In this document: in pieces, positions 476-64,000 of the stretch
How positions within the stretch are numbered: the stretch's first letter is position 1
Layout of the letters: every line of letters begins with the position of its first letter
NCBI GenBank assembly: GCA_963799775.1
Contig: CAWCYD010000003.1
Span: forward strand, 1,440,001 to 1,504,000
Direction: 5' to 3'
Origin: an uncultured archaeon
Lineage (GTDB): Archaea; Thermoproteota; Nitrososphaeria; Nitrososphaerales; Gagatemarchaeaceae
Length of the DNA: 64,000 bases
Made by a program: the position numbers and the translations under genes
The notes under the pieces: model-generated
What the model was told of the DNA's origin: nothing
What the model saw: the letters and a program-made list of their open reading frames with translations, nothing else
Databases searched by the model: none

Positions 476-970
476 ATGAGCGCCAGCGGGTCGGGCTTGA
501 TGCTTGGAGATGTCTTCGGGCTCATAGCAATCGCCCTGATCGGAGCCACGGCTGTCTTGATGCTCCTGAGGCGGGCGATCCTGAAGAGGTTCAAGAACCT
601 GGACATGTTGCGGAGGATCCACATCGCCGTCGCAGGATTGGCTGGCCTGTTTCTCGTACTCCATGTGGCATACTTCATAACGTATCCTCTCACCCTCGAG
701 ATCTCGCTTGGATATCTCTCCGCGGGTCTGGCCTTTGTCGTCTGGTTGACCGGGACGGCCTTCCTCGAGAGATTTCGTGACTCGCTCTACTTCCATGGGA
801 CGTTGTCCTTGAGTGCGATCTCACTGATGGTGATCCATTCATCTGCAGCGGGGCTCAACGTCCCCTTCGCCCTTGCCGAGGCGGTACTCGCAGGCACGAC
901 CGGGGTCGCGATCTTCAAGGCGTCACAATACGTCGGAAAGATGAAGGGCACGGGCGGGCTCAAGGGATGA
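476..970 (+). CDS. Di-haem cytochrome b-like / ferric-reductase-like transmembrane protein
   Basis: About 5 hydrophobic helices; two H-x13-H pairs (RIHIAVAGLAGLFLVLH, FHGTLSLSAISLMVIH); stop overlaps the start of the Rieske gene. Confidence 0.6.
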   Translation: MSASGSGLMLGDVFGLIAIALIGATAVLMLLRRAILKRFKNLDMLRRIHIAVAGLAGLFLVLHVAYFITYPLTLEISLGYLSAGLAFVVWLTGTAFLERFRDSLYFHGTLSLSAISLMVIHSSAAGLNVPFALAEAVLAGTTGVAIFKASQYVGKMKGTGGLKG

Positions 971-1956
971 GCCAGAAAGAGTCCTCCGCGGACTGGCTCG
1001 AGCAGGGCCTCCACGCGAGAATCCCTGTACTCTACCAGAAGGGGGCTGGCAAGGGATACAGGACCAAGACCGAGGCCCTAAGCGGGCTCCGCAGACTGCA
1101 GAGGTACGTCGGGTACATGATGCTCCTGTCCGCAGCAGTCGGCGTCTACCTTCTCGCGAGTGACCACTCCCTCTGGATCCTCGCGGTCTCGCACGCAGTG
1201 GGACTGGTAATCGTCGTGATCCTTGACGTCACTCTCGGTCTCTTGAACTACGCGGGGTCCAAGCGCGTCTACGTGGCGAGCCTTGCGGCCGCCCTGCTCG
1301 GGATCGTCCTCCAGCTGGGCGACATAGCCACGGCTCCGCAGTATGGGATGTCGATGTCGTATTTCGCGTCGTATCTCTTCGGCCTCGCGGCGTTTGACAT
1401 CCTCCTCGCGCTCCAAGCGCTGATCTTGGTGGTAGGGATAATGGGAAGGGCGAACGTCGAGTTCCTGGCACAACGGAGGAGGGTAGGCAGAGAGCTCAAC
1501 TATTCGCGAAGGTCCTTCCTGACTACCATAGTCGGCTTCGCCGCCCTCGTGGGGTTCGGGGTAGTCCTCGGGTCGGTCAAGATCCCTTCGACCTCCTCTT
1601 CACAGGCCGTCGGGGGCGTGCAAGCTGGACCCACGACGGCGATAACGAACACGAGCAACCTGCAGGTCAACTCGCCTGTCTACTTTGAGTATCCCTCCGG
1701 ATACCCGAACGTCCTCTTCAAGAAGAGCGACGGGACTTTGGTCGCGTACAGCATGCTTTGCACGCACGTCTGCTGCGAGGTCACGTACGAGGCCTCGTCG
1801 AACATCTTCTACTGCCCATGCCACGGCTCGGAGTTCGATTCCAACGGCCAGGTCATCGTGGGTCCGGCAGGGACGCCGCTCCCTTCGATCAGCCTGAACG
1901 TCGACAGCTCTGGGAACATCTTTCCCACCGGGACTGTTGGGTATACCCCTTGCTGA
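967..1956 (+). CDS. Rieske [2Fe-2S] protein with polytopic N-terminal membrane domain and internal twin-arginine motif
   Basis: CTHVCC and CPCHGS boxes; about 4 TM helices followed by SRRSFL plus a TM helix. Confidence 0.85.
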   Translation: MSQKESSADWLEQGLHARIPVLYQKGAGKGYRTKTEALSGLRRLQRYVGYMMLLSAAVGVYLLASDHSLWILAVSHAVGLVIVVILDVTLGLLNYAGSKRVYVASLAAALLGIVLQLGDIATAPQYGMSMSYFASYLFGLAAFDILLALQALILVVGIMGRANVEFLAQRRRVGRELNYSRRSFLTTIVGFAALVGFGVVLGSVKIPSTSSSQAVGGVQAGPTTAITNTSNLQVNSPVYFEYPSGYPNVLFKKSDGTLVAYSMLCTHVCCEVTYEASSNIFYCPCHGSEFDSNGQVIVGPAGTPLPSISLNVDSSGNIFPTGTVGYTPC

Positions 1957-44042: not shown

Positions 44043-44996
44043 CTATGCCCTCTCTGCGGTGGTGTAGATCGACGGCGTGCTCGCGTAGGAGAGCCAAGGC
44101 TCGTACTTGGCGATCTTCCCGTGGATCGCGTCCAAGTAGGTCTGCTGGATCTTCCTCGTAATCGGGTACTTGCCGTTGCCTATCATCCTGTTGTCGACCT
44201 CCCTGATGGGCGTCACGTTCGCCGCGGTGCCGCAGAGGAAGAGCTCGTCTGCAGTGAACATGTCCTCACGCAGAAAGTCCTCTTCCTTGAACGGGATGCC
44301 GTTGTCCTTTGCTATCTGGATTATCGATTCCCTCGTGATTCCCTCTAGGACGCCTGCTGCCTTTGTGGGGGTCGTTAGGATGCCGTCCTTGACCCTGAAG
44401 ATGTTTTCCCCAGAGCCCTCGGCCACCAGGCCCCCTGTCGTCAGGAGTATCGCCTCGTCGAAGCCGGCAGAGAGCGCGTCCATCTTCGCGAGGATGGAGT
44501 TCGCGTAGTTGGCCGAGCACTTTGCATGTGGAGGAAGCGTCCTCGGGTCAATCCTGGACCAGCTGGAGACCGTGCACCTGATGCCCTTGTCCATGCCCTC
44601 GTCTCCAAGGTAGGAGCCCCACTCCCAGGCGCTTATCGCGCCGATGACCTTGTTCTTGAGCGGGTTCACGCCCATCTCGCCATAGGAGCTGAACACGATG
44701 GGGCGCACGTAGCAGTCTTTGAGGCCGTTCTCCTTCACCAAGTTCAGGCACGCCTGGACGAGCTGCTCCTCGGTGTACGGGAGATGCATCCTGTATGCCT
44801 TGGCTCCGTTCGCAAGGCGCTTGATGTGCTCCTTTAAGCGGAATATCGCAGGTTCCTTTGGCGTCGAGTTGCACCTTATTCCCTCGAAGATGGCGTAACC
44901 ATAGTGGAGGGCGTGGGTCAGGACGTGGACGTTTGCCTCGTCCCAGTCCACCAGCGCGCCGTCAAACCATATTTTCTTGGTCGGTTTCAATGCCAT
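44043..44996 (-). CDS. ilvE: Branched-chain amino acid aminotransferase
   Basis: HALHYG..FEGIR, AK..ANY, EGSGENIF, LEGITR, GTAA. Confidence 0.95.
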   Translation of the reverse strand: MALKPTKKIWFDGALVDWDEANVHVLTHALHYGYAIFEGIRCNSTPKEPAIFRLKEHIKRLANGAKAYRMHLPYTEEQLVQACLNLVKENGLKDCYVRPIVFSSYGEMGVNPLKNKVIGAISAWEWGSYLGDEGMDKGIRCTVSSWSRIDPRTLPPHAKCSANYANSILAKMDALSAGFDEAILLTTGGLVAEGSGENIFRVKDGILTTPTKAAGVLEGITRESIIQIAKDNGIPFKEEDFLREDMFTADELFLCGTAANVTPIREVDNRMIGNGKYPITRKIQQTYLDAIHGKIAKYEPWLSYASTPSIYTTAERA

Positions 44997-45039
44997 CTAC
45001 AGTCAGCTCGAGAGGCGTGGAAAAGGCCCTAGTAGGCTA

Positions 45040-46085
45040 TTAGCGTATCGCTTCTGAGATGGCCCTTGCCACTTGGGTAGTAGTGGCCTTGCCCCCGAGG
45101 TCCGGCGTCCTTGTCCCCTTGCTGAGCACTTCGTTCACCGCCTCCCTCACTGCGGCAGCCCCTCTAGAGCAGCGGGCGACGTCCCTCGTCTTCGCAAGCC
45201 AATCCAGCATCATGGCGACTGTGAGGATCATCGCTACTGGGTTCGCAATCCCCTTCCCGGCGATGTCCGGGGCCGCCCCGTGGACGGGCTCGAATAGGGC
45301 GAAGCGCTCACCAATGTTGGCGGAAGGCGTCATGCCCAGCCCACCCACGAGCTGGGCGGCCTCGTCGGAGAGGATGTCCCCGTAGAGGTTGGTCGTGACT
45401 ATGACGTCGAAGGATAGCGGGTGCCCTGATCAGGTTCATCGCCGCCGAGTCCACCAGCATCTCGCTGAAGGAGACCTTCGGGTAGCCCTTGGAAACGTCT
45501 CTGCAAACCTGCGCAAACAGGCCGTCGCTCTTCCTGAGGACGTTCGACTTGTGGACTGCGACGACCTTTCGAGCGCCTGCCCTCTGCATGGCCATCTCGA
45601 ACGCGTACTTTGCTATCCTCTCGGAGGCTGCCTTGGTTATCGTTCTGAGTGCGACCACCCCGCCCGGGAAGTCGAACTCCTGCCCCTTGTAGAGGTCCAT
45701 CGGTGTTCTCCCTCACGATCACCATGTCGATGCCCGGCTTGAGCGAAGGGACGTTGGGAAGGCTCTTCGCAGGCCTGATGTTGGCGTAGAGGTCGAGCAT
45801 CTGCCTGAGCTTCACGATGACGTCCGCAGCCGTCTCCCCCACGGGGGCCTTGAGGCAGGCGTCAGATTCGCGGATTGATTTCAATGAGGAATCAGGAAGT
45901 GGGACTCCGGTCTTCTTCTTGCAGTTGTCTCCGGCAGGGGACTCGACGACTGAGAACCCGAGGCCCAGCTTGTCCTCGAGCGCGTCGAGGACGAGGAGCG
46001 AGGCCTTGGATATCTCGGGGCCTACACCGTCCCCCTCGATGAGGGCGATGGAGTACTTTTTCTTCGAGCCTTGCTGCTTTGGCAA
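45040..46085 (-). CDS. leuB: 3-isopropylmalate dehydrogenase; frameshifts near 45699 and 45420
   Basis: [52 protein letters not shown]; located in the leu operon. Confidence 0.9.
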
Positions 46086-46091
46086 GCCGTT

Positions 46092-46625
46092 CTAAGAAGA
46101 GGCCCTCATCGGCACAGCTTTTAGCTTCTGCCGGAGTCTCTCCTTGACCATCCCGAGGAACCCGCCCCTGTTCATCGACTCGATGGCCGCGTCAGTCGCG
46201 ACGATCGGATATTCGAGCCCTGTGGTGACGTCTTTGAGATTCCTCGCCTCGAGGTCTATCAGGAGCTCGTCGCCGACAGCGATCTTGCTCGTGTCGCTCA
46301 CCTGGATCGGCAGCAGGCCGTTGTTGAGGCAGTTTCGGAAGAATATGTCGGGGAAGCTCTGGGCCACGACGGCGACGACGTTGTTGTATTTTATCGCGTA
46401 GACCGCCTGCTCCCTCGAGCTGCCGCAGCCGAAGTTGTTCGCCCCCACGACGATGCTCTCCTTGTTCGCCCTGCAGGTCGGCCCGAAGGTCGGGTCGTAG
46501 CCCTCGAACGCATGGTCGGCGAAGAACTGCTTGTCCCAGCTCTCCTGGAGGATGTAGGCGGGGATGATGTAGTCGGTGTTGATGTCGTCCCCGAACTTCT
46601 TGGCCACTTTTCCCCTCATCTGCAA
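46092..46625 (-). CDS. leuD: 3-isopropylmalate dehydratase small subunit
   Basis: DDINTDYIIP, NFGCGSSREQA, IFFRNCLNNG. Confidence 0.93.
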   Translation of the reverse strand: MQMRGKVAKKFGDDINTDYIIPAYILQESWDKQFFADHAFEGYDPTFGPTCRANKESIVVGANNFGCGSSREQAVYAIKYNNVVAVVAQSFPDIFFRNCLNNGLLPIQVSDTSKIAVGDELLIDLEARNLKDVTTGLEYPIVATDAAIESMNRGGFLGMVKERLRQKLKAVPMRASS

Positions 46626-46628
46626 GTC

Positions 46629-47957
46629 TCAGTTCACACCTGATGGCAGATACTTCCTCGGGTCTGCGATCCTCCCCTCGATGGCCGTCGCGGCGGCCAG
46701 GGCGGGGACCACGAGATAGATGAAAGCCTCCGGCGAGCCCATCCTCCCCTTGTAGTTGCGGTTGCTCGTGCTCAGGCACCTGTCGCCGGGGGCGAGGATG
46801 CCCATGTGCTTGCCGAAGCAAGGGCCGCAGTTGGAGGACTCGATGTTCGCGCCCGCGTCGGCGAAGACCTTCAGGAGCCCGTTGTCCATCGCCCAGTTGT
46901 AGACGCGCCTGCTGGCGGGGATGACGATGAGGTTCGTGTTCGGGCTGACCTTCCTCCCCTTCAGGATCTTCGCGGCTATAGTGAGGTCCGCCTCGCGCGC
47001 GTTGGCACAGGAACCCAGGAAGACCGTGCTTATCGGGTCGCTCACCTCTGAGACGGGCTTTGCGTTCGCAGGGGAGTGGGGCAGGGAGACCGTGGGCTCC
47101 ACCGCGGAGGCGTCGATCTCGACGATCCTAGAGAAGTTGGCGTCGGCGTCGCTCTTGGCCATCATCCCTCGCATCTCGTCTGTCATCGGCATGCGCCTTC
47201 GCGCGAGCGCCTCGTTGACGTAAGAGAGCGTCGTGGCGTCCGGGTTGATTATCGCAGTCCTCGCGCTCATCTCCACGGAGAGGTTGCAGATCGTGAACCT
47301 CCCCTCCATGTCGAGGGCATCGATGGTCGGCCCCGTGTATTCGGCGACGCGCTTCGATGACCCGCCCTCGCCCATCATCCCGAGGATGTGTAGGACGAGG
47401 TAGTTGGCGTAGACGCCTCTCTGGAACTTGCCGCTCACCTTGAACTTGATCGTCTCCGGGACTGTAAACGAGTAGAGCTCGCCCGTCGCCAGGAGGTTCT
47501 CGCCCTCTGTGGTCCCAATCCCGAAGGCGAGGGAGCCTAGGGCGCCCTGGGTGCAGGTGTGCGAGTCGGTCGCGACAGCGATCTCCCCGGGAAGGACGAA
47601 CGCCTCCTCGGAGGCTATGGTGTGCTCGATCCCGTCGCCCTCCTTGTACATGGCTATCCCCTGGTCCTTCGCAAAGTCGGCCATCAGGCGGATGCCCTGG
47701 CTCACCTTGATGGAGCAGGAGGGGACCGTGTGGTCGGGCATGAATGCTATCCTCGAGGGGTTGAAGACCTGCATCTTCTTCCCGGACTCTGTGAAGACGT
47801 CCTCAAAGTCCTTCTCGAAGTTGAGGATGGCTGGTGGGCCTATTACCTCGTTGAAGTAGAGCTTGTCGACTGGAAGGGCCTCGATTACGTCCCCGGCCTT
47901 CGCCTTCTTCCCGATCGCACGGGAGACTATCTTCTCGGTGATGGTCGCGCCTGGCAT
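46629..47957 (-). CDS. leuC: 3-isopropylmalate dehydratase large subunit
   Basis: DH, DSHTCT, GSC.N, CGPCFG, STSNRNYKGRMG. Confidence 0.93.
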   Translation of the reverse strand: MPGATITEKIVSRAIGKKAKAGDVIEALPVDKLYFNEVIGPPAILNFEKDFEDVFTESGKKMQVFNPSRIAFMPDHTVPSCSIKVSQGIRLMADFAKDQGIAMYKEGDGIEHTIASEEAFVLPGEIAVATDSHTCTQGALGSLAFGIGTTEGENLLATGELYSFTVPETIKFKVSGKFQRGVYANYLVLHILGMMGEGGSSKRVAEYTGPTIDALDMEGRFTICNLSVEMSARTAIINPDATTLSYVNEALARRRMPMTDEMRGMMAKSDADANFSRIVEIDASAVEPTVSLPHSPANAKPVSEVSDPISTVFLGSCANAREADLTIAAKILKGRKVSPNTNLIVIPASRRVYNWAMDNGLLKVFADAGANIESSNCGPCFGKHMGILAPGDRCLSTSNRNYKGRMGSPEAFIYLVVPALAAATAIEGRIADPRKYLPSGVN

Positions 47958-47978
47958 GAGATTCTTTCCTCTTTTCGC

Positions 47979-49538
47979 CTAGACCCCTTCCACCGCTGTC
48001 TGCTCTCCCTTGGCGGCGAAGGAGGTCGACGGCTGGGCCTGGAGTTTCATCGCCATGAGCGCGTTTATTCCGTTCACTATGGCTTCGACGCTGGCTACGA
48101 CGATGTCCCTCTTCAACCCGCGCCCAGAGGCGACCAAACCAGTGCTGTCCTCGACCTTGACGGAGACGTCGGCGACGGCTTGGGAGTCGCCTGTAAGCGC
48201 CTCGAGCCTGTATTCCTTGAGCTTCACTATGTCGATCGTGCTGAATATCTTCTGGATGGCGTTCACCGCGGCGTCGACAGGCCCTGACCCGACGTCCGTC
48301 GCCTCGTGCAGCTGGCCTCTGATGAGGAGCTTCACGGTGGCGCTAGGGAGGCGCTTTATCCCGGTGACGACCTCGAGGCCCTCGAGCTCGACGATGTCCG
48401 CCGTCTCTGCCTTGCCACCGCCCATTATCTGAATTGCGAGCTGGTAGAGGTCGCTGTCGGTAGTGCTCCTCCCCTGGTCGCCCATCTCCTTCACCTTCTC
48501 CACGATGAGCCTCAGGCTGTCCTCCTTCGGCTTCAGGCCCATCCCTCTCAGCTGGTAGGCGATCCCGTGCCTCCCAGCGTGCTTGCCGGCCTGGAGCCAC
48601 CTTGTCCTGCCCACCATCGCCGGGTCGAAGGGCTCGTAGGTGGACGGGTTGCTGAGTATCCCATGGGTGTGGATCCCGGACTCATGCCCGAAAGCGTTGT
48701 CGCCGACTATGGCCTTGTTCGGCTGGATCATGACGCCCGTCAGGGTTGAGACCAGACGCGACGTCTCGTAGAGAAGCGAGTAGTTGATGTTCGTCCTCAG
48801 CGCGTAGAGGTTGAAGCACCCCATCACGAACTCCTCGAGCGAGGTATTCCCCGACCTCTCGCCGATGCCGTTTATCGTGAGGTGCGCCTGGTCTGCCCCC
48901 GCGACGACACCGGCCAGGCTGTTCGCGACTGCCAGACCGTAGTCATTGTGGCAGTGGACGCTGATCATCGCGTCGGAGACGGAGCGTGCGGCCTGGACGT
49001 ATTCCGTTATCTTCTGGGGCGTCGCTATCCCGACGGTGTCGGGGATGTCGAAGCGGTCGATCCCAGCGTCGGTGACGGTCTTTACGACCTGCTTGAAGAA
49101 CGGGATCTCCGTGCGCGTCGCGTCCTCTGCAGAGAACTCGACCTTGACGCCGAAAGTCTTCGCGTAGCGGACCATGTCCGCCGACTGCTTGAGCATCTGC
49201 TCCCTCGTCATGTGGAGCTTGTGTTGGAGGTGGATGTCTGAGGATGCGAGGAAGACGTGGACGCCCTTCACGCCGCAGTTGATCGCCGTGTCGATGTCGA
49301 GCTTCTCGGCCCTTGCCAGGCCCGAGACCTCCGCCTTGAGGCCTGCCTTCGCTATCCTTCGGACGCCCTCCTGCTCGCCCTTCGATGTGATAGGGAAACC
49401 TGCCTCTATGACGTCGACGCCGAGCTTGTCGAGGGCCTCCGCTATCTCCAGCTTCTCGTCGGGTGTCAGCGAGACTCCGGGAGTCTGCTCCCCGTCTCGG
49501 AGCGTCGTGTCGAGCACGCGGATTATCCTCTCGGTCAT
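47979..49538 (-). CDS. leuA: 2-isopropylmalate synthase
   Basis: DTTLRDGEQ, HCHND, GIGERSGN, HESGIH, G.GPVDA regulatory domain. Confidence 0.92.
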   Translation of the reverse strand: MTERIIRVLDTTLRDGEQTPGVSLTPDEKLEIAEALDKLGVDVIEAGFPITSKGEQEGVRRIAKAGLKAEVSGLARAEKLDIDTAINCGVKGVHVFLASSDIHLQHKLHMTREQMLKQSADMVRYAKTFGVKVEFSAEDATRTEIPFFKQVVKTVTDAGIDRFDIPDTVGIATPQKITEYVQAARSVSDAMISVHCHNDYGLAVANSLAGVVAGADQAHLTINGIGERSGNTSLEEFVMGCFNLYALRTNINYSLLYETSRLVSTLTGVMIQPNKAIVGDNAFGHESGIHTHGILSNPSTYEPFDPAMVGRTRWLQAGKHAGRHGIAYQLRGMGLKPKEDSLRLIVEKVKEMGDQGRSTTDSDLYQLAIQIMGGGKAETADIVELEGLEVVTGIKRLPSATVKLLIRGQLHEATDVGSGPVDAAVNAIQKIFSTIDIVKLKEYRLEALTGDSQAVADVSVKVEDSTGLVASGRGLKRDIVVASVEAIVNGINALMAMKLQAQPSTSFAAKGEQTAVEGV

Positions 49539-50012
49539 CGCAACGCGCTCTCCTTTGGTAGGGCAGCCGTGCCGGTTCTCGCGATGTCGAGGACGTTCAC
49601 CCCCAACCTGTCCACGAACTCGTCAATCTGCTTGACGGACCCTACTATCTCGGCTACCACGGAGTGCTGAGACGAGTCTACTATCCTGCAACCCGAGTTC
49701 CTTTGGATCTCCGCAACGGAAATCTTGTCCGTGTTTATCTTCACAAGCGCGAGCTCTCTCGCTGTGACCTCCTCGGGGCCATAGGTGTGCGCCTCGAGGA
49801 TGTCTATGACTTTCATCAACTGCCTGGCCACGTGCTCGACGGCGGCGTCGTCCCCGCTGAGGGTCATGGTCATCCGGCATTCCTTGCCTCCGCTGCTCAC
49901 GCCTAGCGTGAGGCCCTCGATGTTGAGGCGCATCAGCCTCACTAGGTGCACCACCCGGAAAAGAGTCCCGGGCTTGTTCTCAACCAAGGCAGATAGGACT
50001 TTCGAGGAGCAT
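49535..50012 (-). CDS. ilvN: Acetohydroxyacid synthase small (ACT) subunit; start uncertain
   Basis: VENKPGTLFRV, NIEGL, RELALVKI, IARTG. Confidence 0.88.
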
Positions 50013-50014
50013 CG

Positions 50015-51742
50015 TCAAAAGACCGCCATCTCCTTTGGCGAGCCGTAGACGGTGTCCTTGATCCCCTTGCCTGGAGGGAGGAATGGGAAGACGTCCTCCT
50101 CGGGCGATACGGGGCACTCGATCACCATCGGACCGTCGAGCGTGAGGCCCTCGCGCATCGCCTTTGCGAACTCGTCGAGCGACCCCACCGTCTTCGCGTG
50201 GGCGCCGTAGGCCTCGGAGAGCTTGACAAAGTCCGGGATGTTCGGGAACTTTATCCCGATGTAGCGCCTGTTGTACATGATCCTCTGCCACTGCTCGACC
50301 ATCCCCAAGCTCCTGTCGTTGATGATCACCGAGATTATCGGGAGGTGGTGCTCTACCGCTGTCGCGAGGGCCTGCTCCGTCATGACGAAGCTCCCGTCGC
50401 CGTCGAAGTCGACCACTGGGACGTCGGGCCTGGCGAACTTGGCGCCCACTGCTGCGGGAAGACCGAACCCCATCGTCCCCAGCCCCGTGGAAGTGATCCA
50501 CGTCCTCGGCCTCAGCACCTTGTAGTGGATCTCGCACCACATCTGGTGCCTGCCGACGCCCGTGGTGAGGATGGCCTCGGGAGGCAGGATGTCCCTGAGC
50601 TTCTTGACTATCGTTGGGCCTGAGAGGTCCGCGTAGGTGTTCTTGTAGGCGGGGATCCCCTTCATCTCCTCCCTCACCTCGTTGACGCGCTTCAACCACG
50701 GGTTGTTGTTCGGGTCACTTGCTCTTGGACAGTCGCCTCGCGACCGAGTCGAAGAGCATCCCCATGACTATGTTTGCGTCGCCCAGTATCGAGAGGTCCA
50801 CCACCTTGTTCTTGTTGAACTCGGTCGGGTCGGCGTCGATGTGGATTATCTTGGCGCCAGGGGCGAACTCGGCGAAGTTCCCGGTCGAGCGGTCGGAGAA
50901 CCTCACGCCCACCGCGACCAGGAGGTCGCACTCTGAGACGAGCTTGTTCGCCTCGGCCCTCCCGTGCATCCCGATGGGGCCCAGTGAGAGCGGATGATCC
51001 TCTGGGAAGTCGCCCTTGCCTTGGAGCGTCGTGATGACGGGCGCCATCAGAAGCTCGGCGAGCGCCCCGAAGGGCTGGGCCGCGTCCGCGATCCTCACCC
51101 CGCCTCCGCCCCACAGGATGGGCCTCTCTGCCTTGACAATCATCTCGGCCGCGCGCTCCACGTCCGTCGCGTCCACGGGGACGTTGGGCCTGTAGGCGCG
51201 GACGGTGACTGAGTCGGGGAAGGTCATCTCCGCCTCTTCCTGCTGGACGTCCTTCGGAAGGTCCACGAGGACGGGTCCGGGCCGCCCGGTAGTCGCGATG
51301 TAGAAGGCCTCCTTAACGGCGAAGGGGCACTTCCGCGGGGGAGAGGGGCTGTAGAGTGTACTTGGTGACAGGCGTGGCTATCCCGATGACGTCGGTCTCT
51401 TGGAAGGCGTTCTTACCTGTCATCGCCTTGGGCACCTGGCCTGTGATCGCCACCATCGGGGAGGAGTCGGCGTACGCGGTCGCTATCCCTGTGATGAGGT
51501 TCGTCGCGCCAGGCCCTGAAGTCGCCGTGCAGACTCCCGCCTTGCGTGAGACCCTGCCGTAGGCGTCGGCCATGTGGGCGGCCAGCTGCTCGTGCCTCGT
51601 CAGGATGTGCTTGATCTTCGAGTCCCAGAGCGCGTCGTAGAGAGGAAGGCTCGCGCCTCCGGGCATGCCGAAGATGTACTCTACCTTCTCCCTCTCGAGG
51701 GGCCTCCACCGTAGCCCGTGCGCCAGACATCTTGCTTGCCAT
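50015..51742 (-). CDS. ilvB: Acetohydroxyacid synthase large subunit; frameshifts near 51700, 51325 and 50717
   Basis: [46 protein letters not shown]. Confidence 0.94.
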
Positions 51743-51773
51743 TCTATGCAATCACCAGAAATTCGAAACGCTT

Positions 51774-51811
51774 GTTGCCTCGCAAACACAAAACACCGTG
51801 TGGCGAGGAAC
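51774..51811 (-). promoter_or_regulatory. Hairpin between the leader ORF stop and the ilvB ribosome-binding site
   Basis: Minus strand GTT-CCTCGC-CACA...TGTG-TTT-GCGAGG-C-AAC. Confidence 0.6.
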
Positions 51812-51895
51812 CTAGACTAAAACTAAGAATGCAACTGTCGAGTTGTCGAGTGAGATGCCTCCTTGACTCGAACCGAGAGTGCTAATTCGTTGCAT
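51812..51895 (-). CDS. Putative ilv-leu leader peptide [27 protein letters not shown]
   Basis: ATG 21-32 nt downstream of the TTAAATATAAG box (51916-51927); ends GTT GCA TTC TTA GTT TTA GTC TAG. Confidence 0.55.
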
Positions 51896-51959
51896 TTAAT
51901 TCCCTGCAACCCAGACTTATATTTAAGAGTTGGTCGGCGACCGACGTAGCGACGTCAAC

Positions 51960-52313
51960 GTGACCGTGAACCTTGCAGAAGTCATCCGCCCTTGGGGGAG
52001 CTTCCGCATCATCGGTCAGTTCTCGGGCCGGATCACGGTGAAGATTGTGAAGATCAACCCGCACGGCCGGCTAAGTCTTCAGAGGCACCACAACAGGGAC
52101 GAGGAGTGGACCGTCCTCAGCGGCCAAGTCACCGCAACCGTCGGCGACAGGGTGTACCACTTGCACGTGGGGGACAGGACGACCGCTTATCGCACCTGGG
52201 TGCACAGATTGGAGAGCGACGTCGGGGCCGAGCTCCTCGAGGTCTCGTACGGGGAGTTCGACGAGGACGACATAGTCCGCCTCAGCGACGACTACGGGCG
52301 GAAGACCCCTTGA
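51960..52313 (+). CDS. Mannose-6-phosphate isomerase type II C-terminal cupin
   Basis: RPWG, LSLQRHHNRDEEW, HRLE, EDDIVRLSDDYGR. Confidence 0.88.
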   Translation: MTVNLAEVIRPWGSFRIIGQFSGRITVKIVKINPHGRLSLQRHHNRDEEWTVLSGQVTATVGDRVYHLHVGDRTTAYRTWVHRLESDVGAELLEVSYGEFDEDDIVRLSDDYGRKTP

Positions 52314-52352
52314 AATTAGAACTTCCGGATTCTGTAAAGTCTGTTGCACGGC

Positions 52353-52586
52353 CTAGGGGATGAAAAACCACTTGATAGTTTGTGGATTGCAACCAAGATG
52401 CCACCCGAAGTGCGGTGCATACACCTCTCCCAATCCAACAGTTGCACAGCCTGCGGAGCGGTAAACCGGCGACGGGGGCCCGAAGCCCGCCGAAATGTTC
52501 ACCCAAAACAGGACGGGAGCAAGGAAGAAGGCGACAATTAGGATGCACGCGATTCCCGCCAGCGCGACCTTTCTCCTTGTCTGCAT
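52353..52586 (-). CDS. Small membrane-anchored hypothetical protein
   Basis: RRK plus TM helix; YRSAGC..G.G. Confidence 0.5.
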   Translation of the reverse strand: MQTRRKVALAGIACILIVAFFLAPVLFWVNISAGFGPPSPVYRSAGCATVGLGEVYAPHFGWHLGCNPQTIKWFFIP

Positions 52587-52784
52587 CGCTTTTTCAGAGT
52601 GGAAGATTGCCTTAACTCTTGAGGGTCTTCTGAATCCCCTGGTCCCATTCCTCTTAGGTAATCAGGCGCTTCTCTTCGAGTAGGTCCGCTGGCGAAGTTA
52701 TCCTTCTCGTGCCTCACGCAAAAAACTTTGCGGAATCGACCTTCCGTCTGCCTTAAATATAACGGCCTAATATTGAGTGCCTAC

Positions 52785-53209
52785 TTGATCCACCCCTACG
52801 AAATAGTGTCAAAGTCAGCGCTTCCCGCGTTCAGGGCGATGGTCTCGAAGAGGCTCACAGAAGACTACGACATGACGCAGCAAGAGGTCGCGACGAGGCT
52901 GGGGTGACGCAGGCCTCCGTCAGCAACTACGCCAGGAAGGCCAGGGGGATGATGCTCGACCTCGAGGTCGACGACAACATCGCGAGGGCGGCGGACAAGG
53001 TCGCCGAGCTCCTCGCCTCAGAGAAGCCTGATCAAAGAGAGGCGCTGCGCCTGATGACCGAGGTCTGTGACTATGTAAGATTCAACCACACCCTCTGCTC
53101 TCTCCACCAGCACCTCGAGCCGGGCTTCAAGACGGAAGGGTGCTTCGCCTGCCTCGGGAGCCTCCCGCCAGAGAGCGGGACGATAAGGCTCTCCGCAGCT
53201 GTCAGTTAA
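52785..53209 (+). CDS. COG2522-like HTH regulator with C-terminal Cys/His metal site; frameshift near 52903
   Basis: PYEIVSKSALPAFRAMV, MTQQEVATRLG(V)TQASVSNY; C..C.LH..CFAC. Confidence 0.8.
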
Positions 53210-53248
53210 GCTCAATAGCCATTCCGCAGAGGGGCATAGCAAATCGCC

Positions 53249-54160
53249 TTGATGCAACCCAAGCCCGAGTGGCTCACTGTCTTTCCCGCCACAGCGGTAG
53301 ACAAGGGCGAGAACTATCGCAGATTGAAGGGGCTCTTCAGGGAGCTCGGGCTGCACACGGTCTGCGAGGAGGCCCACTGCCCCAACGTCTCAGAGTGCTG
53401 GGGGAGCGGGACCGCGACGCTGATGCTCATGGGCGATGTCTGCTCGAGGGCGTGCAGGTTCTGCATGGTCACTCCGGGCAGGCCTACGGGCGCACCCGAC
53501 CCGCTCGAGCCCGAGAACGTTGCCCTGACGTTATCGCAGATGGAGCTCTCCTACGTGGTGCTGACATCCGTGGACAGGGACGACCTGCCCGACCAAGGGG
53601 CCGGACACTTTGCAAAGACCATCCGTGCGACGAAGGAGATGAACCCGGGGACGAGGGTCGAGGTCATCATCCCCGATTTCCAGAACGACATCGAGGCGAT
53701 CAGGACCGTGGTCGAGGCGAGGCCAGACGTGGTCGCTCACAACATCGAGACGACGATGTTCCTGAGCCAGAGGGTGAGGGGCCCGCGAGCAGGATACTGG
53801 CAGTCGCTCTCGGTCCTGAAGAACATCAAGAGGCTCGACCACTCGATGCCGACGAAGTCGTCCATCATGCTGGGGCTGGGCGAGGGGGAGGAAGAGGTGA
53901 GGCTCGCGATGATGCACTTGAGGGACGCAGGCGTGGACTTCCTCACGCTCGGGCAATATCTCAGGCCATCCATGAGGCACCTGCCAGTGCAGGAGTATGT
54001 CGCTCCAGACGTCTTCGACCACCTTAAGCGCGTGGGCGAGGAAGAGTATGGTTTCGATTACGTGGCCTCCGGCCCGCTCGTGAGGTCGAGCTACCGCGCC
54101 GGAGAGATGTTCATCGCGGCGACGTTAAAAAACAAACAACAATCAACGAAGTTTCAATAG
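53249..54160 (+). CDS. lipA: Lipoyl synthase
   Basis: CEEAHCPNVSEC, CSRACRFC, VRSSY. Confidence 0.96.
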   Translation: MMQPKPEWLTVFPATAVDKGENYRRLKGLFRELGLHTVCEEAHCPNVSECWGSGTATLMLMGDVCSRACRFCMVTPGRPTGAPDPLEPENVALTLSQMELSYVVLTSVDRDDLPDQGAGHFAKTIRATKEMNPGTRVEVIIPDFQNDIEAIRTVVEARPDVVAHNIETTMFLSQRVRGPRAGYWQSLSVLKNIKRLDHSMPTKSSIMLGLGEGEEEVRLAMMHLRDAGVDFLTLGQYLRPSMRHLPVQEYVAPDVFDHLKRVGEEEYGFDYVASGPLVRSSYRAGEMFIAATLKNKQQSTKFQ

Positions 54161-59201: not shown

Positions 59202-60204
59202 CTATGTGACCTGGTCGTTGGGCCACATCATGCTTCGCAGCTTCTTTCCGACCTTCTCGATCTGGTGGGCCTCGAGGGCGTCCATGTATTTCTGGAACGA
59301 CTTTTGCCCTTCCTTCTCGTAGACGCTGACCCACTCCTTCGCGAAGGTCCCCGTCCTGGATCTCCTTCAGGTCCTTCTTCATCGCCTTCTTCACCTCCGG
59401 GCCTATGGCCCTCTTCCCTCTCGTAAGGCCCCCATACCGGGCCGTCTCGCTCACCCTCCGATACATCCCTGAGATCCCATACTTTTGGACCAGGTCGACT
59501 ATCAGCTTCAGCTCGTGGAGCGTCTCGAAGTACGCAATCTCCGGCTGGTAGCCGGCTTCCACAAGAGTCTCGAACGCGTTCTTCACCATGCTCTCGACCC
59601 CTCCGCAGAGGTCCACCTGCTCGCCGAACCAGTCGCTCTCCACCTCTTCCTTGAAGGTGGTCTGCAAGATGCCAGGCCGGGTCGAGCCGATGCCCTTTGC
59701 AATCGCTAGGACGCGGTCCCATGCCCTCTTCGAGTAGTCCTGCTGGACTGCGACTAGCGACGGGGTCCCGAAGTTCTCGAGATAGAGCTCCCTCACCCTT
59801 TGCCCGGGAGACTTGGGTGCGACCATGATGACGTCGGATTTCTTTGGCGGGACGATCCACTTCCAGTGGATGGCAGCGCCGTGCGAGAACGAGAGCGCGG
59901 CTCCCTTTTGGAAGTTCGGGGCTATCTCCTCCTTGTAGACCCGGGCCTGCTCCATGTCCGGAATCAGGACGTGGACAATCTGGGCCTTCTTGACCGCGTC
60001 GGGGACGGTCGCCACTTTGTGCCCCTCGTTCTTCGCCTTCTTCCAGCTCTTTCCTCCCTCACGGAGGCCAACGACCACCTTCAGGCCAGAGTCCCTCAGG
60101 TTGCTCGCCTGGGCCGCTCCCTGGATGCCATAACCAATCACCGCTATCGTCTCGCCCTTTATCGGGTCTAGACTGACGTCGTCATCGTGCCACATCTTCG
60201 CCAT
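59202..60204 (-). CDS. ilvC: Ketol-acid reductoisomerase; frameshift near 59350
   Basis: [39 protein letters not shown]. Confidence 0.95.
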
Positions 60205-63277: not shown

Positions 63278-64000
63278 TTGCAAAGGACTAAGTCGCATCC
63301 TGCCAAACTGACCGCCGGGATCGACAGACCCCCCAGCGCGCAATGCTCCGCGCGATAGGCCTGACGGACGAGGACTTTGAAAAGCCGATAATCGGGATCG
63401 CCAACACCTGGGTCGAGGCCCAGCCCTGTAACTACGACCTGAGAGAGCTCGCCATCGAGGTGAAGAAGGGAGTGAGGGACGCGGGCGGGACGCCCCTGGA
63501 GTTCAACACGATAGCGATCAACGACGCCATGGCGATGGGCCATGAGGGGATGAAGGCCTCGCTCATCAGCCGCGAGGTCATCGCGGACTCCATCGAGCTG
63601 AGCGCTTCGGGGTACCAGTTCGACGGGCTCGTCACGATCGGAGGATGCGACAAGACGCAGCCAGCCTCGGCGATGGCTCTCGCGCGCGTCAACATCCCCG
63701 GAGTCTACCTCTACGGCGGGAGCATCCCGCCAGGAGAGTGGAACGGGAAGGAGGTGACGATACAGGACGTCTTCGAGGCGATGGGGCAGGTCTCCAGGGG
63801 GACGATGACCGTCGCGCAGCTCAATGGACCTCGAGTGCAACGCGTGTCCCACTTTCGGCGCATGCGGAGGGATGTTCACGGCCAACACGATGGCATCGGC
63901 GCTAGAGGCGATAGGCCTCACTGTCCCGAACTGCGCCGCGCCTGTGGCCCCGAGCGAGGCGAGGAAGAAGGTGGCGTACGACACCGGCTGGGCCGTCATG
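63278..64000 (+). CDS. ilvD: Dihydroxy-acid dehydratase, 5' part (runs off the window); frameshifts near 63327 and 63825
   Basis: [36 protein letters not shown]. Confidence 0.93.

Follow-up and report, generated by a model that had tools for sequence, protein, structure and literature searches.

We consider it rather likely that an 84-nt open reading frame (ORF) lying ahead of the ilvBN-leuACDB-ilvE operon of this archaeon is a translated, leaderless leader peptide which senses the supply of Leu- and Val-tRNA through ribosome stalling. The anatomy of the leader, its conservation, its codon bias, its specificity for the ilvB operon and the start of the transcript in a relative are established, and from these we infer stalling itself and an effector step. 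In the model we propose, the leader ORF would be the first cistron of the operon transcript and, since transcription starts at, or a few nucleotides from, the leader ATG, ribosomes would load onto a 5′ end that has no leader of its own. They would then meet a final 7–10 codons that are nearly all Leu or Val (or Ile) and that are the rarest codons in a GC-rich genus. If charged Leu- or Val-tRNA were scarce, the ribosome would stall in this tail, against the hairpin 3′ of the stop codon; given an ample supply it would reach the stop and depart, such that its position in the tail would set the level of operon expression.

The elements that an initial annotation had placed on the minus strand of the window (the whole 64,000-nt stretch of DNA analysed here), namely a TATA box, a 27-codon ORF ending V-A-F-L-V-L-V, a hairpin beside its stop, GGTGA and the ilvB ATG, were all recovered at their predicted coordinates (Table 1). 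The leader ORF uses TTA twice and GTT twice, Leu and Val account for five of its seven final codons, and its length and frame equal those in eight close relatives. NCBIfam matches agree with the proposed seven-gene operon, in the order ilvB-ilvN-leuA-leuC-leuD-leuB-ilvE, and with a cupin gene as the divergent neighbour. In relatives ilvB is unbroken and encodes 576–578 aa, and its frameshifts in the window are probably assembly errors; the spread of this gene over three frames by 1-nt insertions marks the assembly as indel-prone. The architecture is particular to this operon: across five genomes, neither a branched-chain amino acid (BCAA) leader nor a short ORF (sORF) precedes ilvC, ilvD or a leuA paralogue, all of them simply leaderless, and ilvC and ilvD, in contrast to ilvB, have no Shine-Dalgarno sequence.

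Table 1. Features of the ilvB leader and its operon in the window
Feature	Position	Strand	Remarks
TATA box CTTAAATATAAG	51916–51927	−	promoter of the ilv leader; close to a palindrome; possibly shared with the divergent cupin gene
Leader ORF	51812–51895	−	27 codons, ATG at 51895, TAG at 51814–51812; predicted leaderless first cistron
Putative sensor tail GTT GCA TTC TTA GTT TTA GTC (V-A-F-L-V-L-V)	51815–51835	−	rare U-rich codons
Element A AATGCAAC	51889–51896	−	spans start codon; complementary to element B
Element B GTTGCATT	51828–51835	−	first tail codons; 3′ strand of leader-internal helix A:B
Inner hairpin TCGAGT ... ACTCGA	51846–51871	−	inside leader ORF; RNAalifold, 6 pairs
Stop-adjacent hairpin, core CCUCGC/GCGAGG	51774–51811	−	38 nt, directly after TAG; MFE fold
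Shine-Dalgarno GGTGA for ilvB	51751–51755	−	8 nt (51750–51743) before ilvB ATG at 51742
ilvB, acetolactate synthase large subunit	50015–51742	−	three frames; 1-nt insertions at 51702, 51341, 50717
ilvN, leuA, leuC, leuD, leuB (frame-broken), ilvE	44043–49987	−	NCBIfam matches

Alignment with relatives bore out the expectation of a shared upstream ORF with an I/L/V tail, in 18 of 18 genus loci and in most families. Within the genus the helices are nearly invariant. At all 18 evaluable same-genus loci the ORF is open with its start and stop register unchanged, and a 3-nt indel in one leader (L008) is in-frame. Frame openness alone is weak evidence here, given that the +2 frame is likewise stop-free in 17 of the 18 genus sequences. 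When the stop was required to lie 30–110 nt upstream of ilvB, at least six I/L/V codons among the eight before the stop were found at 46 of 79 Nitrososphaerales loci vs 2 of the 79 reverse complements (shuffle mean for this order-wide count, 3.07), and outside Nitrososphaerales the tail was present at 1 of 51 loci. Most families of the order have it, and the ammonia oxidisers that carry the element include Nitrosotalea, Nitrosotenuis, Nitrososphaera, Nitrosarchaeum and Nitrosopumilus; tails of the Nitrosocosmicus type are weak, and a clear tail was seen in none of three loci from one family (f9). Among the final 10 residues of 45 leaders (450 positions) there are 182 L, 108 V and 43 I, and order-wide the I/L/V occupancy is highest at codons −2 to −5.

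It is quite unlikely, in our view, that translation or conservation of the ORF serves some other end, the product being a small hydrophobic peptide with a function of its own or the leader acting as an RNA element (hairpins that stabilise or insulate, or the binding site of an Lrp-type regulator) whose U-rich sequence reads as Leu/Val by accident. Sequences of the genus show conservation of tail and helices at first, second and third codon positions alike, and this nucleotide-level invariance could reflect an RNA constraint instead of a coding constraint. Such a reading would also fit the open +2 frame, and archaeal BCAA genes are frequently under the control of Lrp-family regulators. Between families, however, peptide sequence and length (14–40 codons) vary and the I/L/V composition beside the stop alone is kept, and a hydrophobic run of 7–10 residues falls short of the length of a membrane helix. 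An RNA element would, moreover, lack any rationale for a U at each second codon position, in frame with a stop and with an ATG at leaderless distance. The element precedes the acetolactate synthase and leuA operon, not other BCAA genes, and is rare in the remainder of the genome, and the covariance models of Rfam 15 gave no match within 51742–51927 at E ≤ 10. The sole Rfam match in 50000–54000 was a sub-threshold, SNORD35-like one at 52601–52656.

The claim that the codons of the tail are rare could be put into numbers against genome-wide shares counted in ORFs of at least 250 aa. In the genus tails TTA makes up 24 of 50 Leu codons vs 1.2% genome-wide, GTT 21 of 43 Val codons vs 12.8%, and ATT all 8 Ile codons vs 12%, and the last four codons include TTA in each of the 18 genus leaders. 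ARAGORN reported just 18 tRNAs across the genome, so that the missing tRNA-Leu(UAA) carries no information. The ilvB leader is not a chance ORF, and we give next to no weight to its being one that arose in an AT-rich intergenic region. The lower GC content there (0.49 vs 0.59 for the genome) would favour TTA and GTT triplets, but this does not account for conservation across the order despite diverged sequences, for the composition-matched controls, or for the rarity of the arrangement in the genome. Scanning the 2.47 Mb for ATG-initiated sORFs of at most 50 codons with at least 5 of 8 I/L/V codons before the stop and a TATA-like 8-mer (at least 7/8 A/T) at leaderless distance returned five; two of these precede an ORF of at least 100 aa, the ilvB leader being one of the two. 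At the thresholds used, no leaders for other amino acids (His, Trp, Thr, Phe and others) were found genome-wide.

Two readings that would have been awkward for a leaderless leader were checked, namely that the TATA box serves only the cupin gene or that transcription starts downstream of the leader ATG, and both checks favoured the leader, the second of them in a relative. The distance from TTAAATA to the leader ATG is fixed at 29–31 nt in all 18 genus loci whilst the sequence between them varies, and in several relatives the divergent neighbour is another gene, served by a TATA box of its own some 100 nt further upstream. Order-wide, 29 of 45 leaders have an 8-mer of 8/8 A/T that begins 28–39 nt ahead of the leader ATG, vs 6 of 45 at the same distance before ilvB itself. 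Raw RNA-seq reads (run X23) from a relative within Nitrososphaeraceae that shares this architecture (G173) begin at the leader ATG and enter ilvB: depth is 0 across 841–980, the onset falls in the bin with the leader ATG (981), and 25 molecule ends lie at 987, with coverage unbroken into ilvB. We therefore predict that the sORF begins at the 5′ end of the transcript in the window as well, on the strength of the TATA spacing in the genus and the start mapped in this relative. Runs X22 and X24 gave zero reads over the leader. A 4833-nt RNA contig from a further run (X1) extends even over intergenic DNA where the raw reads show no signal, and is uninformative on transcript ends. RNA-seq depth was also seen to rise inside ilvB; since dips within conserved genes do not count as a finding, we give no weight to this rise or to the lack of 5′ reads in X22 and X24.

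The same reads report on what happens at the hairpin. In X23, 21 adapter read-throughs stop at 1087, a possible 3′ end 8 nt past the hairpin stem, and depth falls at this step from ~290 to ~230. Comparable adapter pile-ups occur at 1188, 1340 and 1360, and the majority of transcripts pass the hairpin into ilvB.

In secondary structure prediction the whole leader of the window is not unusually stable (z = 0.17, 200 shuffles). Within the first genus subgroup element A, the inner hairpin (RNAalifold) and GGTGA are each identical in 9 of 9 sequences, the second subgroup forms a counterpart of helix A:B, 8 bp long (CAACGCUA/UAGCGUUG), and the core of the stop-adjacent hairpin is kept throughout the genus. 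Being invariant, the inner hairpin offers no covariation to test, and RNAalifold found 3 compensatory pairs per subgroup with a covariation term near zero; given this near-invariance we relied instead on comparison across families. There, hairpins with different, family-specific stems are found at the same place, and stop-adjacent hairpins are enriched, those of 29 of 65 leaders beating 95% of control positions. The initial annotation had proposed that the first tail codons may pair in two alternative ways. Pairing of GTTGCATT with AATGCAAC stands, in that the two are complementary, whereas that of GTTGC with GCAAC is specific to the window, where GCAAC comes after the 3′ arm of the stop-adjacent hairpin; relatives read GCAAT or GCATT at this position. 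At ≤0.05, 10 of 43 leaders (~2 expected) have a tail more complementary to upstream sequence than its codon-shuffled versions, and complementarity to the downstream spacer or ribosome-binding site (RBS) shows no excess (0 of 43 at ≤0.05).

We folded 45 leaders with the ribosome footprint as a constraint, a test that reports on equilibrium folding only. The probability of the hairpin was 0.51 in the free leader, 0.50 with a ribosome at codon −5, 0.40 at −2 and 0.13 at the stop, so a ribosome at −5 leaves it unchanged, and the hairpin is lost in silico only when the ribosome occupies the last codons or the stop. The same constraint folding revealed no antiterminator-type alternative fold across families. 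A U-tract after the hairpin is not general either (T-run of at least 4 in 4 of 41; mean U 4.4 vs 3.9 expected), and in the genus there is none immediately 3′ of the stem; the canonical terminator U-tract was accordingly rejected as a general feature.

How the position of the ribosome might be read out is a matter of graded preference. Our tentative choice of effector is conditional premature 3′-end formation right after the stop-adjacent hairpin; a ribosome occupying the last codons would impede this hairpin either by occlusion or by a steric clash with RNA polymerase. Simple occlusion would require extra assumptions, given that stalling at the earliest hungry codons (−8 to −6) would keep the ribosome clear of the hairpin. 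It is also conceivable, if unlikely, that the same sensor acts through a termination factor, with the U-rich, unstructured tail forming an aCPSF1/FttA loading site that the stalled ribosome masks. In this GC-rich genus no other part of the leader is as rich in U as the tail UUAGUUUUAGUC, and the weakness of the U-tracts after the hairpin, too slight for a bacterial-type terminator, together with the failure to see an antiterminator fold, would sit well with such a factor. In the available text of a short review, the case is made that archaeal factor-dependent termination requires the ribosome and RNA polymerase to be uncoupled, and that of another has nucleases of the aCPSF1/FttA family working at U-rich signals. 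Against this, a U4 run is present in the tail of only 12 of 18 genus sequences and is missing in many other families, as in a leader whose tail reads CUG GUC CUG UUG CUA CUU (L080).

A translational effector, in which the stalled ribosome opens a structure hiding the ilvB RBS or in which ribosomes reinitiate at ilvB, appears very unlikely. The layout does match that of the mycobacterial poly-Cys sORFs as far as these are described in the accessible part of the source, with a leaderless first cistron, cognate codons and a next gene led by a Shine-Dalgarno sequence (10.1101/834739), and the predominance of read-through into ilvB in X23 would be consistent with it. Across the 45 leaders, however, the ilvB RBS is predicted to be unpaired to the same extent in all four ribosome states (fractions of 0.50, 0.49, 0.50 and 0.50), and given this equality and the absence of any excess of tail-to-downstream complementarity, RBS unmasking was rejected. 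Reinitiation after fast termination would have the wrong sign, giving more enzyme when Leu and Val are plentiful.

Leader-peptide attenuation is the textbook regulatory use of coupled transcription and translation and is viewed as bacterial. To our knowledge, archaea have a eukaryote-like RNA polymerase, no Rho and no canonical intrinsic terminators. In open-access papers and on bioRxiv we found no archaeal leader-peptide attenuator described, and a review of termination signals from 2026, in whose available text archaea come up 62 times, does not once use the word stem "attenuat". It is possible, although we would not yet bet on it, that the element is the first archaeal amino-acid-sensing, ribosome-mediated attenuator, ancestral to Nitrososphaerales, globally abundant ammonia oxidisers included, and with an effector that has no bacterial counterpart (a stop-adjacent hairpin or an aCPSF1/FttA site blocked, sterically or by occlusion, by a ribosome stalled on the last codons). 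If so, archaea would share the bacterial sensing logic, whether newly evolved or retained, and would join it to another read-out, and transcription-translation coupling in archaea would serve gene regulation directly. Since cultivable ammonia oxidisers carry the element, direct testing is feasible. It would also provide a short, defined cis element from which to build archaeal switches that respond to amino acids, and in these genomes it points to a gene ahead of ilvB that has gone unannotated. Our analysis supports the ribosome-stalling interpretation put forward initially, with a response to Leu/Val supply as its inferred part.

Two of the closest known systems are compared here on the accessible part of their literature. 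The leader peptide of the Corynebacterium glutamicum ilvBNC attenuator, also the subject of Morbach et al. 2000, is reportedly made without a ribosome-binding site (PMC11857589). Like the archaeal leader, this system controls ilvB through an apparently leaderless BCAA leader peptide; unlike it, it is bacterial and follows a three-hairpin terminator/antiterminator model. The mycobacterial poly-Cys sORFs are described as the leaderless first cistron of a biosynthetic operon whose cognate codons are sensed by ribosome pausing, with the stalled ribosome unmasking a downstream RBS (10.1101/834739). The leaderless first cistron and the run of cognate codons are shared with our leader, whereas RBS masking is not seen in the folding here, and the two systems belong to different domains of life and sense different amino acids.

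The leader-peptide attenuators of bacterial branched-chain operons, represented in E. coli by ivbL/ilvBN, ilvL/ilvGMEDA and leuL, also resemble the archaeal element. In both, the 5′ leader of a BCAA biosynthetic operon contains a short ORF with a stretch of cognate codons (Leu > Val > Ile in our leaders), rare ones being chosen as in leuL, and a hairpin separates this ORF from the first enzyme gene. The Leu/Val bias of the E. coli ilvBN leader is alike to that of the archaeal tails. The systems differ in that our leader is archaeal, its ORF is leaderless, its hungry codons reach the stop, its hairpin abuts that stop, and neither an antiterminator alternative nor a general U-tract was detected. 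The hungry codons also tend to be the 3′ arm of an upstream helix and not the 5′ arm of a downstream one. With respect to the position of the ribosome, E. coli tnaC offers a further parallel. There, free tryptophan is sensed through the nascent peptide and Rho is blocked, the stalled ribosome masking a Rho site beside the stop. In both cases the regulatory ribosome would sit at the extreme end of the leader ORF, covering what adjoins the stop. Unlike tnaC, the archaeal leader would respond to the charging of tRNA, and if a factor takes part it would be aCPSF1/FttA.

The leader region has the layout that the initial annotation gave it, with TATA box, ORF, hairpin, GGTGA and ilvB ATG all in place (table below), and NCBIfam matches identify the downstream genes as ilvB, ilvN, leuA, leuC, leuD, leuB and ilvE and the divergent neighbour as a cupin gene. 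The supposed rarity of TTA and GTT also holds, with TTA making up 1.2% of all Leu codons, and GTT 12.8% of those for Val, in ORFs of at least 250 aa across the 2.47 Mb genome (GC 0.588).

Coordinates of the leader region and ilv genes in the window, and of the matching ilvB locus (L241) of the relative G173
Feature	Position	Strand	Remark
TATA box, CTTAAATATAAG	51927-51916	-	ATG 31 nt downstream
Leader ORF, 27 codons	ATG 51895, TAG 51814-51812	-	from sequence
Stop-adjacent hairpin, 38 nt, core CCUCGC/GCGAGG	51811-51774	-	begins at first base past TAG (fold)
GGTGA	51755-51751	-	ahead of ilvB
ilvB ATG	51742	-	from sequence
ilvC	59344-60162	-	own TATA, looks plain leaderless; outside the putatively leader-controlled operon
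ilvD	63331 onward	+	own TATA, looks plain leaderless; outside the putatively leader-controlled operon
L241 TATA	949-960		
L241 leader ATG	981		
L241 leader stop	1047-1049		
L241 hairpin	1050-1079		
L241 GGTGA	1093-1097		
L241 ilvB ATG	1109		

When 40 relatives were searched with the C-terminal third of ilvB, 19 same-genus loci were retrieved, from which L016 (truncated where its contig ends) and L020 (beginning within ilvB) were left out. Aligning ilvB upstream regions, a check suggested at the outset, revealed the I/L/V-tailed leader in all 17 remaining loci as well as in the window. These leaders form two subgroups, of 27 codons (26 in L008, which carries an in-frame 3-nt deletion) and of 21-22 codons, and every one starts with ATG-CA 29-31 nt past TTAAATA, with tails such as VALLVLV, VALIVLL and LALAVLV. 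In the tails, 24 of 50 Leu codons are TTA, 21 of 43 Val codons are GTT and all 8 Ile codons are ATT, and TTA lies among the last four codons in 18/18 leaders, although these are kin sequences and the counts are not independent. Openness of the frame alone is weak evidence, since 17 of the 18 sequences have no stop in the +2 frame either. The TATA box might have served only the cupin gene, but several relatives have a different divergent gene with its own TATA some 100 nt further upstream, and the ilv TATA is therefore more than the cupin's promoter.

The element extends across the order, which named records identify as Nitrososphaerales and in which ilvB is present in 159 of 201 genomes (a tally that includes one unpublished genome, G132, which supplied no data here). 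Upstream regions of 60 more loci covered the other families, and 79 of 90 loci could be scored; besides L016 and L020, nine more fell out for anchor-pattern mismatch, irrespective of content. In 46/79 loci, compared with 2/79 reverse complements, at least six of the eight codons preceding a stop located 30-110 nt ahead of ilvB encode I, L or V, and dinucleotide-shuffled controls had a mean tail score of 3.07. Among 65 leaders with a tail score of at least 5, 29 had a perfect stem within 6 nt of the stop that no more than 5% of control positions equalled, where about three would be expected. An 8/8 A/T octamer starts 28-39 nt ahead of 29/45 leader ATGs but only 6/45 ilvB ATGs (17/27 versus 1/27 where GC is at least 0.40), the leader figure being somewhat inflated because the ATG with the best TATA was picked among several in frame. 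Tails of 6 or more occur in one or more loci of 15 of the 19 family-level groups; the maximum in f2, f3 and f10 is 5, and the count for f9 is 0/3. Apart from the tail (LLLLVVLLD, VLSLLVIIIA, NVLLVVLL, KILVLLLLA or VLPLVVLL before the stop), no peptide sequence is common to different families, and the hairpin stems are family-specific (CCUGCA/UGCAGG, GCCCACA/UGUGGGU, CCCAGCG/CGCUGGG, GCCUAC/GUAGGU, GCAAAC/GUUUGC and others). The element is found in Nitrosotalea devanaterra (MTKVDSTSISSILLQVELVL-stop), Nitrososphaera (MPRADREHNVHVLVLLKLA-stop), Nitrosotenuis, Nitrosarchaeum and Nitrosopumilus, and Nitrosocosmicus-type tails are weak. Five Nitrosopumilaceae loci (L052, L054, L056, L057 and L059) share a conserved TTAAAATTATGGAG between leader stop and ilvB, some 32 nt ahead of the ilvB ATG; this TATA-like spacing for a leaderless ilvB may mean that a second promoter follows the leader in that family.

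Outside the order, 51 ilvB upstream regions were scored, drawn from 20 other families of the phylum; one has a tail of at least 6/8, which does not exceed the result for their reverse complements. This exception comes from family f38 and has, in addition, a perfect hairpin next to its stop. Two f38 loci, the only out-of-order ilvB regions with the element, read …PSLVIVVILK-stop (L110) and …VNVVILK-stop (L117), each followed by a GCGCCUUAAG…CUUAAGGCGC hairpin, which could reflect a sister lineage or transfer.

Within the window's genome, an 8/8 A/T octamer lies at leaderless distance from only 111 ATG-initiated sORFs (10-50 codons), of which just four combine a stop-adjacent hairpin with an ORF of at least 100 aa downstream. 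Looser TATA and tail criteria gave five sORFs genome-wide, two with a long ORF downstream, including the window's leader. Its sole companion, MKFLLVLRLSP-stop, lies on the minus strand of contig C3 (1434062 on the reverse complement) at leaderless distance from a TATA, has an I/L/V-rich end and precedes a 282-aa ORF with a hydrophobic N-terminus. The sORF scan found no leaders rich in other amino acids in this genome. The window's genome was compared with two from Nitrososphaeraceae and two from Nitrosopumilaceae. In all five, no I/L/V sORF precedes ilvC, ilvD or the leuA paralogue, which are ordinary leaderless genes with a TATA 25-30 nt before the ATG, and ilvB-ilvN-leuA adjacency is kept.

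The window's organism is an uncultured MAG, and RNA evidence comes from G173, a complete Nitrososphaeraceae genome whose locus L241 has the window's layout and is covered by 20 RNA runs from five studies (raw-read runs X22, X23 and X24). In X23, ilvB-strand depth is 0 over 841-980, 60.8 in the bin 981-1000 and 290 at 1061-1080, then remains at 226-264 across the spacer and into the initial 90 nt of ilvB; 25 molecule ends fall at 987. Transcription in G173 therefore starts at the leader ATG or at most 6 nt from it, rather than further downstream, and leader and ilvB are co-transcribed. At 1087, 8 nt past the stem, 21 reads enter adapter and depth falls by about 20%, which fits a minor leader RNA of about 100 nt but is only suggestive, because comparable pile-ups occur at 1188, 1340 and 1360. 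Reads in X22 and X24 begin only at about 1254, and in X23 depth climbs 4-5-fold inside ilvB (1220-1380); an internal start or processing could account for this, as could an artefact of read filtering, and dips in conserved genes are unreliable.

In the window, ilvB (50015-51742, minus strand) is spread over three frames: compared with an intact relative it has three frame-breaking single-base insertions, two of them in C4/C5 runs. The genes leuB (45040-46085, minus) and ilvD (63331-64000, plus) are likewise split over several frames. Gene decay is the alternative, but these breaks look like homopolymer indel errors of assembly rather than pseudogenes, because two of the ilvB insertions lie in C runs and the assembly has three contigs yet a completeness score of 82%. 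Leader length and register are identical in eight close relatives. ARAGORN reports only 18 tRNA genes in this genome, tRNA-Leu(UAA) not among them, and intron-containing or indel-hit tRNA genes were probably missed. At 52601-52656 (plus) the SNORD35 model gives a weak C/D-box snoRNA-like match (E 1.5; 18.5 bits, short of the gathering score), which may be noise or an archaeal C/D sRNA.

Turning to mechanism, 45 leaders (tail of at least 6, ATG start) were folded with an imposed ribosome footprint. The probability of the stop-adjacent hairpin was 0.51 without a ribosome, 0.50 and 0.40 with the A-site at codons -5 and -2 (counted back from the stop) and 0.13 with the ribosome at the stop codon, and the unpaired fraction of the ilvB RBS was 0.50, 0.49, 0.50 and 0.50, respectively. 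Across these 45 leaders there was no unmasking of the ilvB RBS and no antiterminator-type switch. From codon -2 back to codon -5, I/L/V occupancy is 0.98, 0.93, 0.84 and 0.93; it is 0.67 at -1 and still 0.40-0.49 at -9 to -12, beyond the codons used for selection. Pairing between the tail and a leader segment upstream of it exceeds that of codon-shuffled tails in 10 of 43 leaders (at 0.05 or below), including all four f4 leaders (for example ACAACUAGC/GCUAGUUGU), and excess pairing with the downstream spacer was found in 0/43. In the genus, the upstream helix is AAUGCAAC/GUUGCRUU, start codon included, or CAACGCUA/UAGCGUUG. U-tracts after the hairpin are weak.

By sequence comparison, a role for the leader as sensor, in whose tail ribosomes would stall under Leu/Val shortage, is well supported; the effector is not. 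Given weak U-tracts, neither antiterminator nor RBS unmasking, and tail pairing upstream only, we favour conditional 3'-end formation past the hairpin, which a ribosome parked on the last codons would hinder. Masking of a factor site by the ribosome would rank second and translational control third.

Full-text searches of open-access papers and bioRxiv gave no archaeal leader-peptide attenuator, and the initial annotation had likewise known of none. The leader shares its logic with bacterial BCAA leader peptides, and is predicted to be leaderless like the mycobacterial poly-Cys sORFs (10.1101/834739) and, apparently, the leader peptide of Corynebacterium ilvBNC (PMC11857589). Of the defining features of the classical attenuator it shows no antiterminator and seems to lack the U-tract, and it differs from the mycobacterial type in RBS masking. 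The leader is thus best classed as probably working like classical and mycobacterial attenuators rather than as a member of either.
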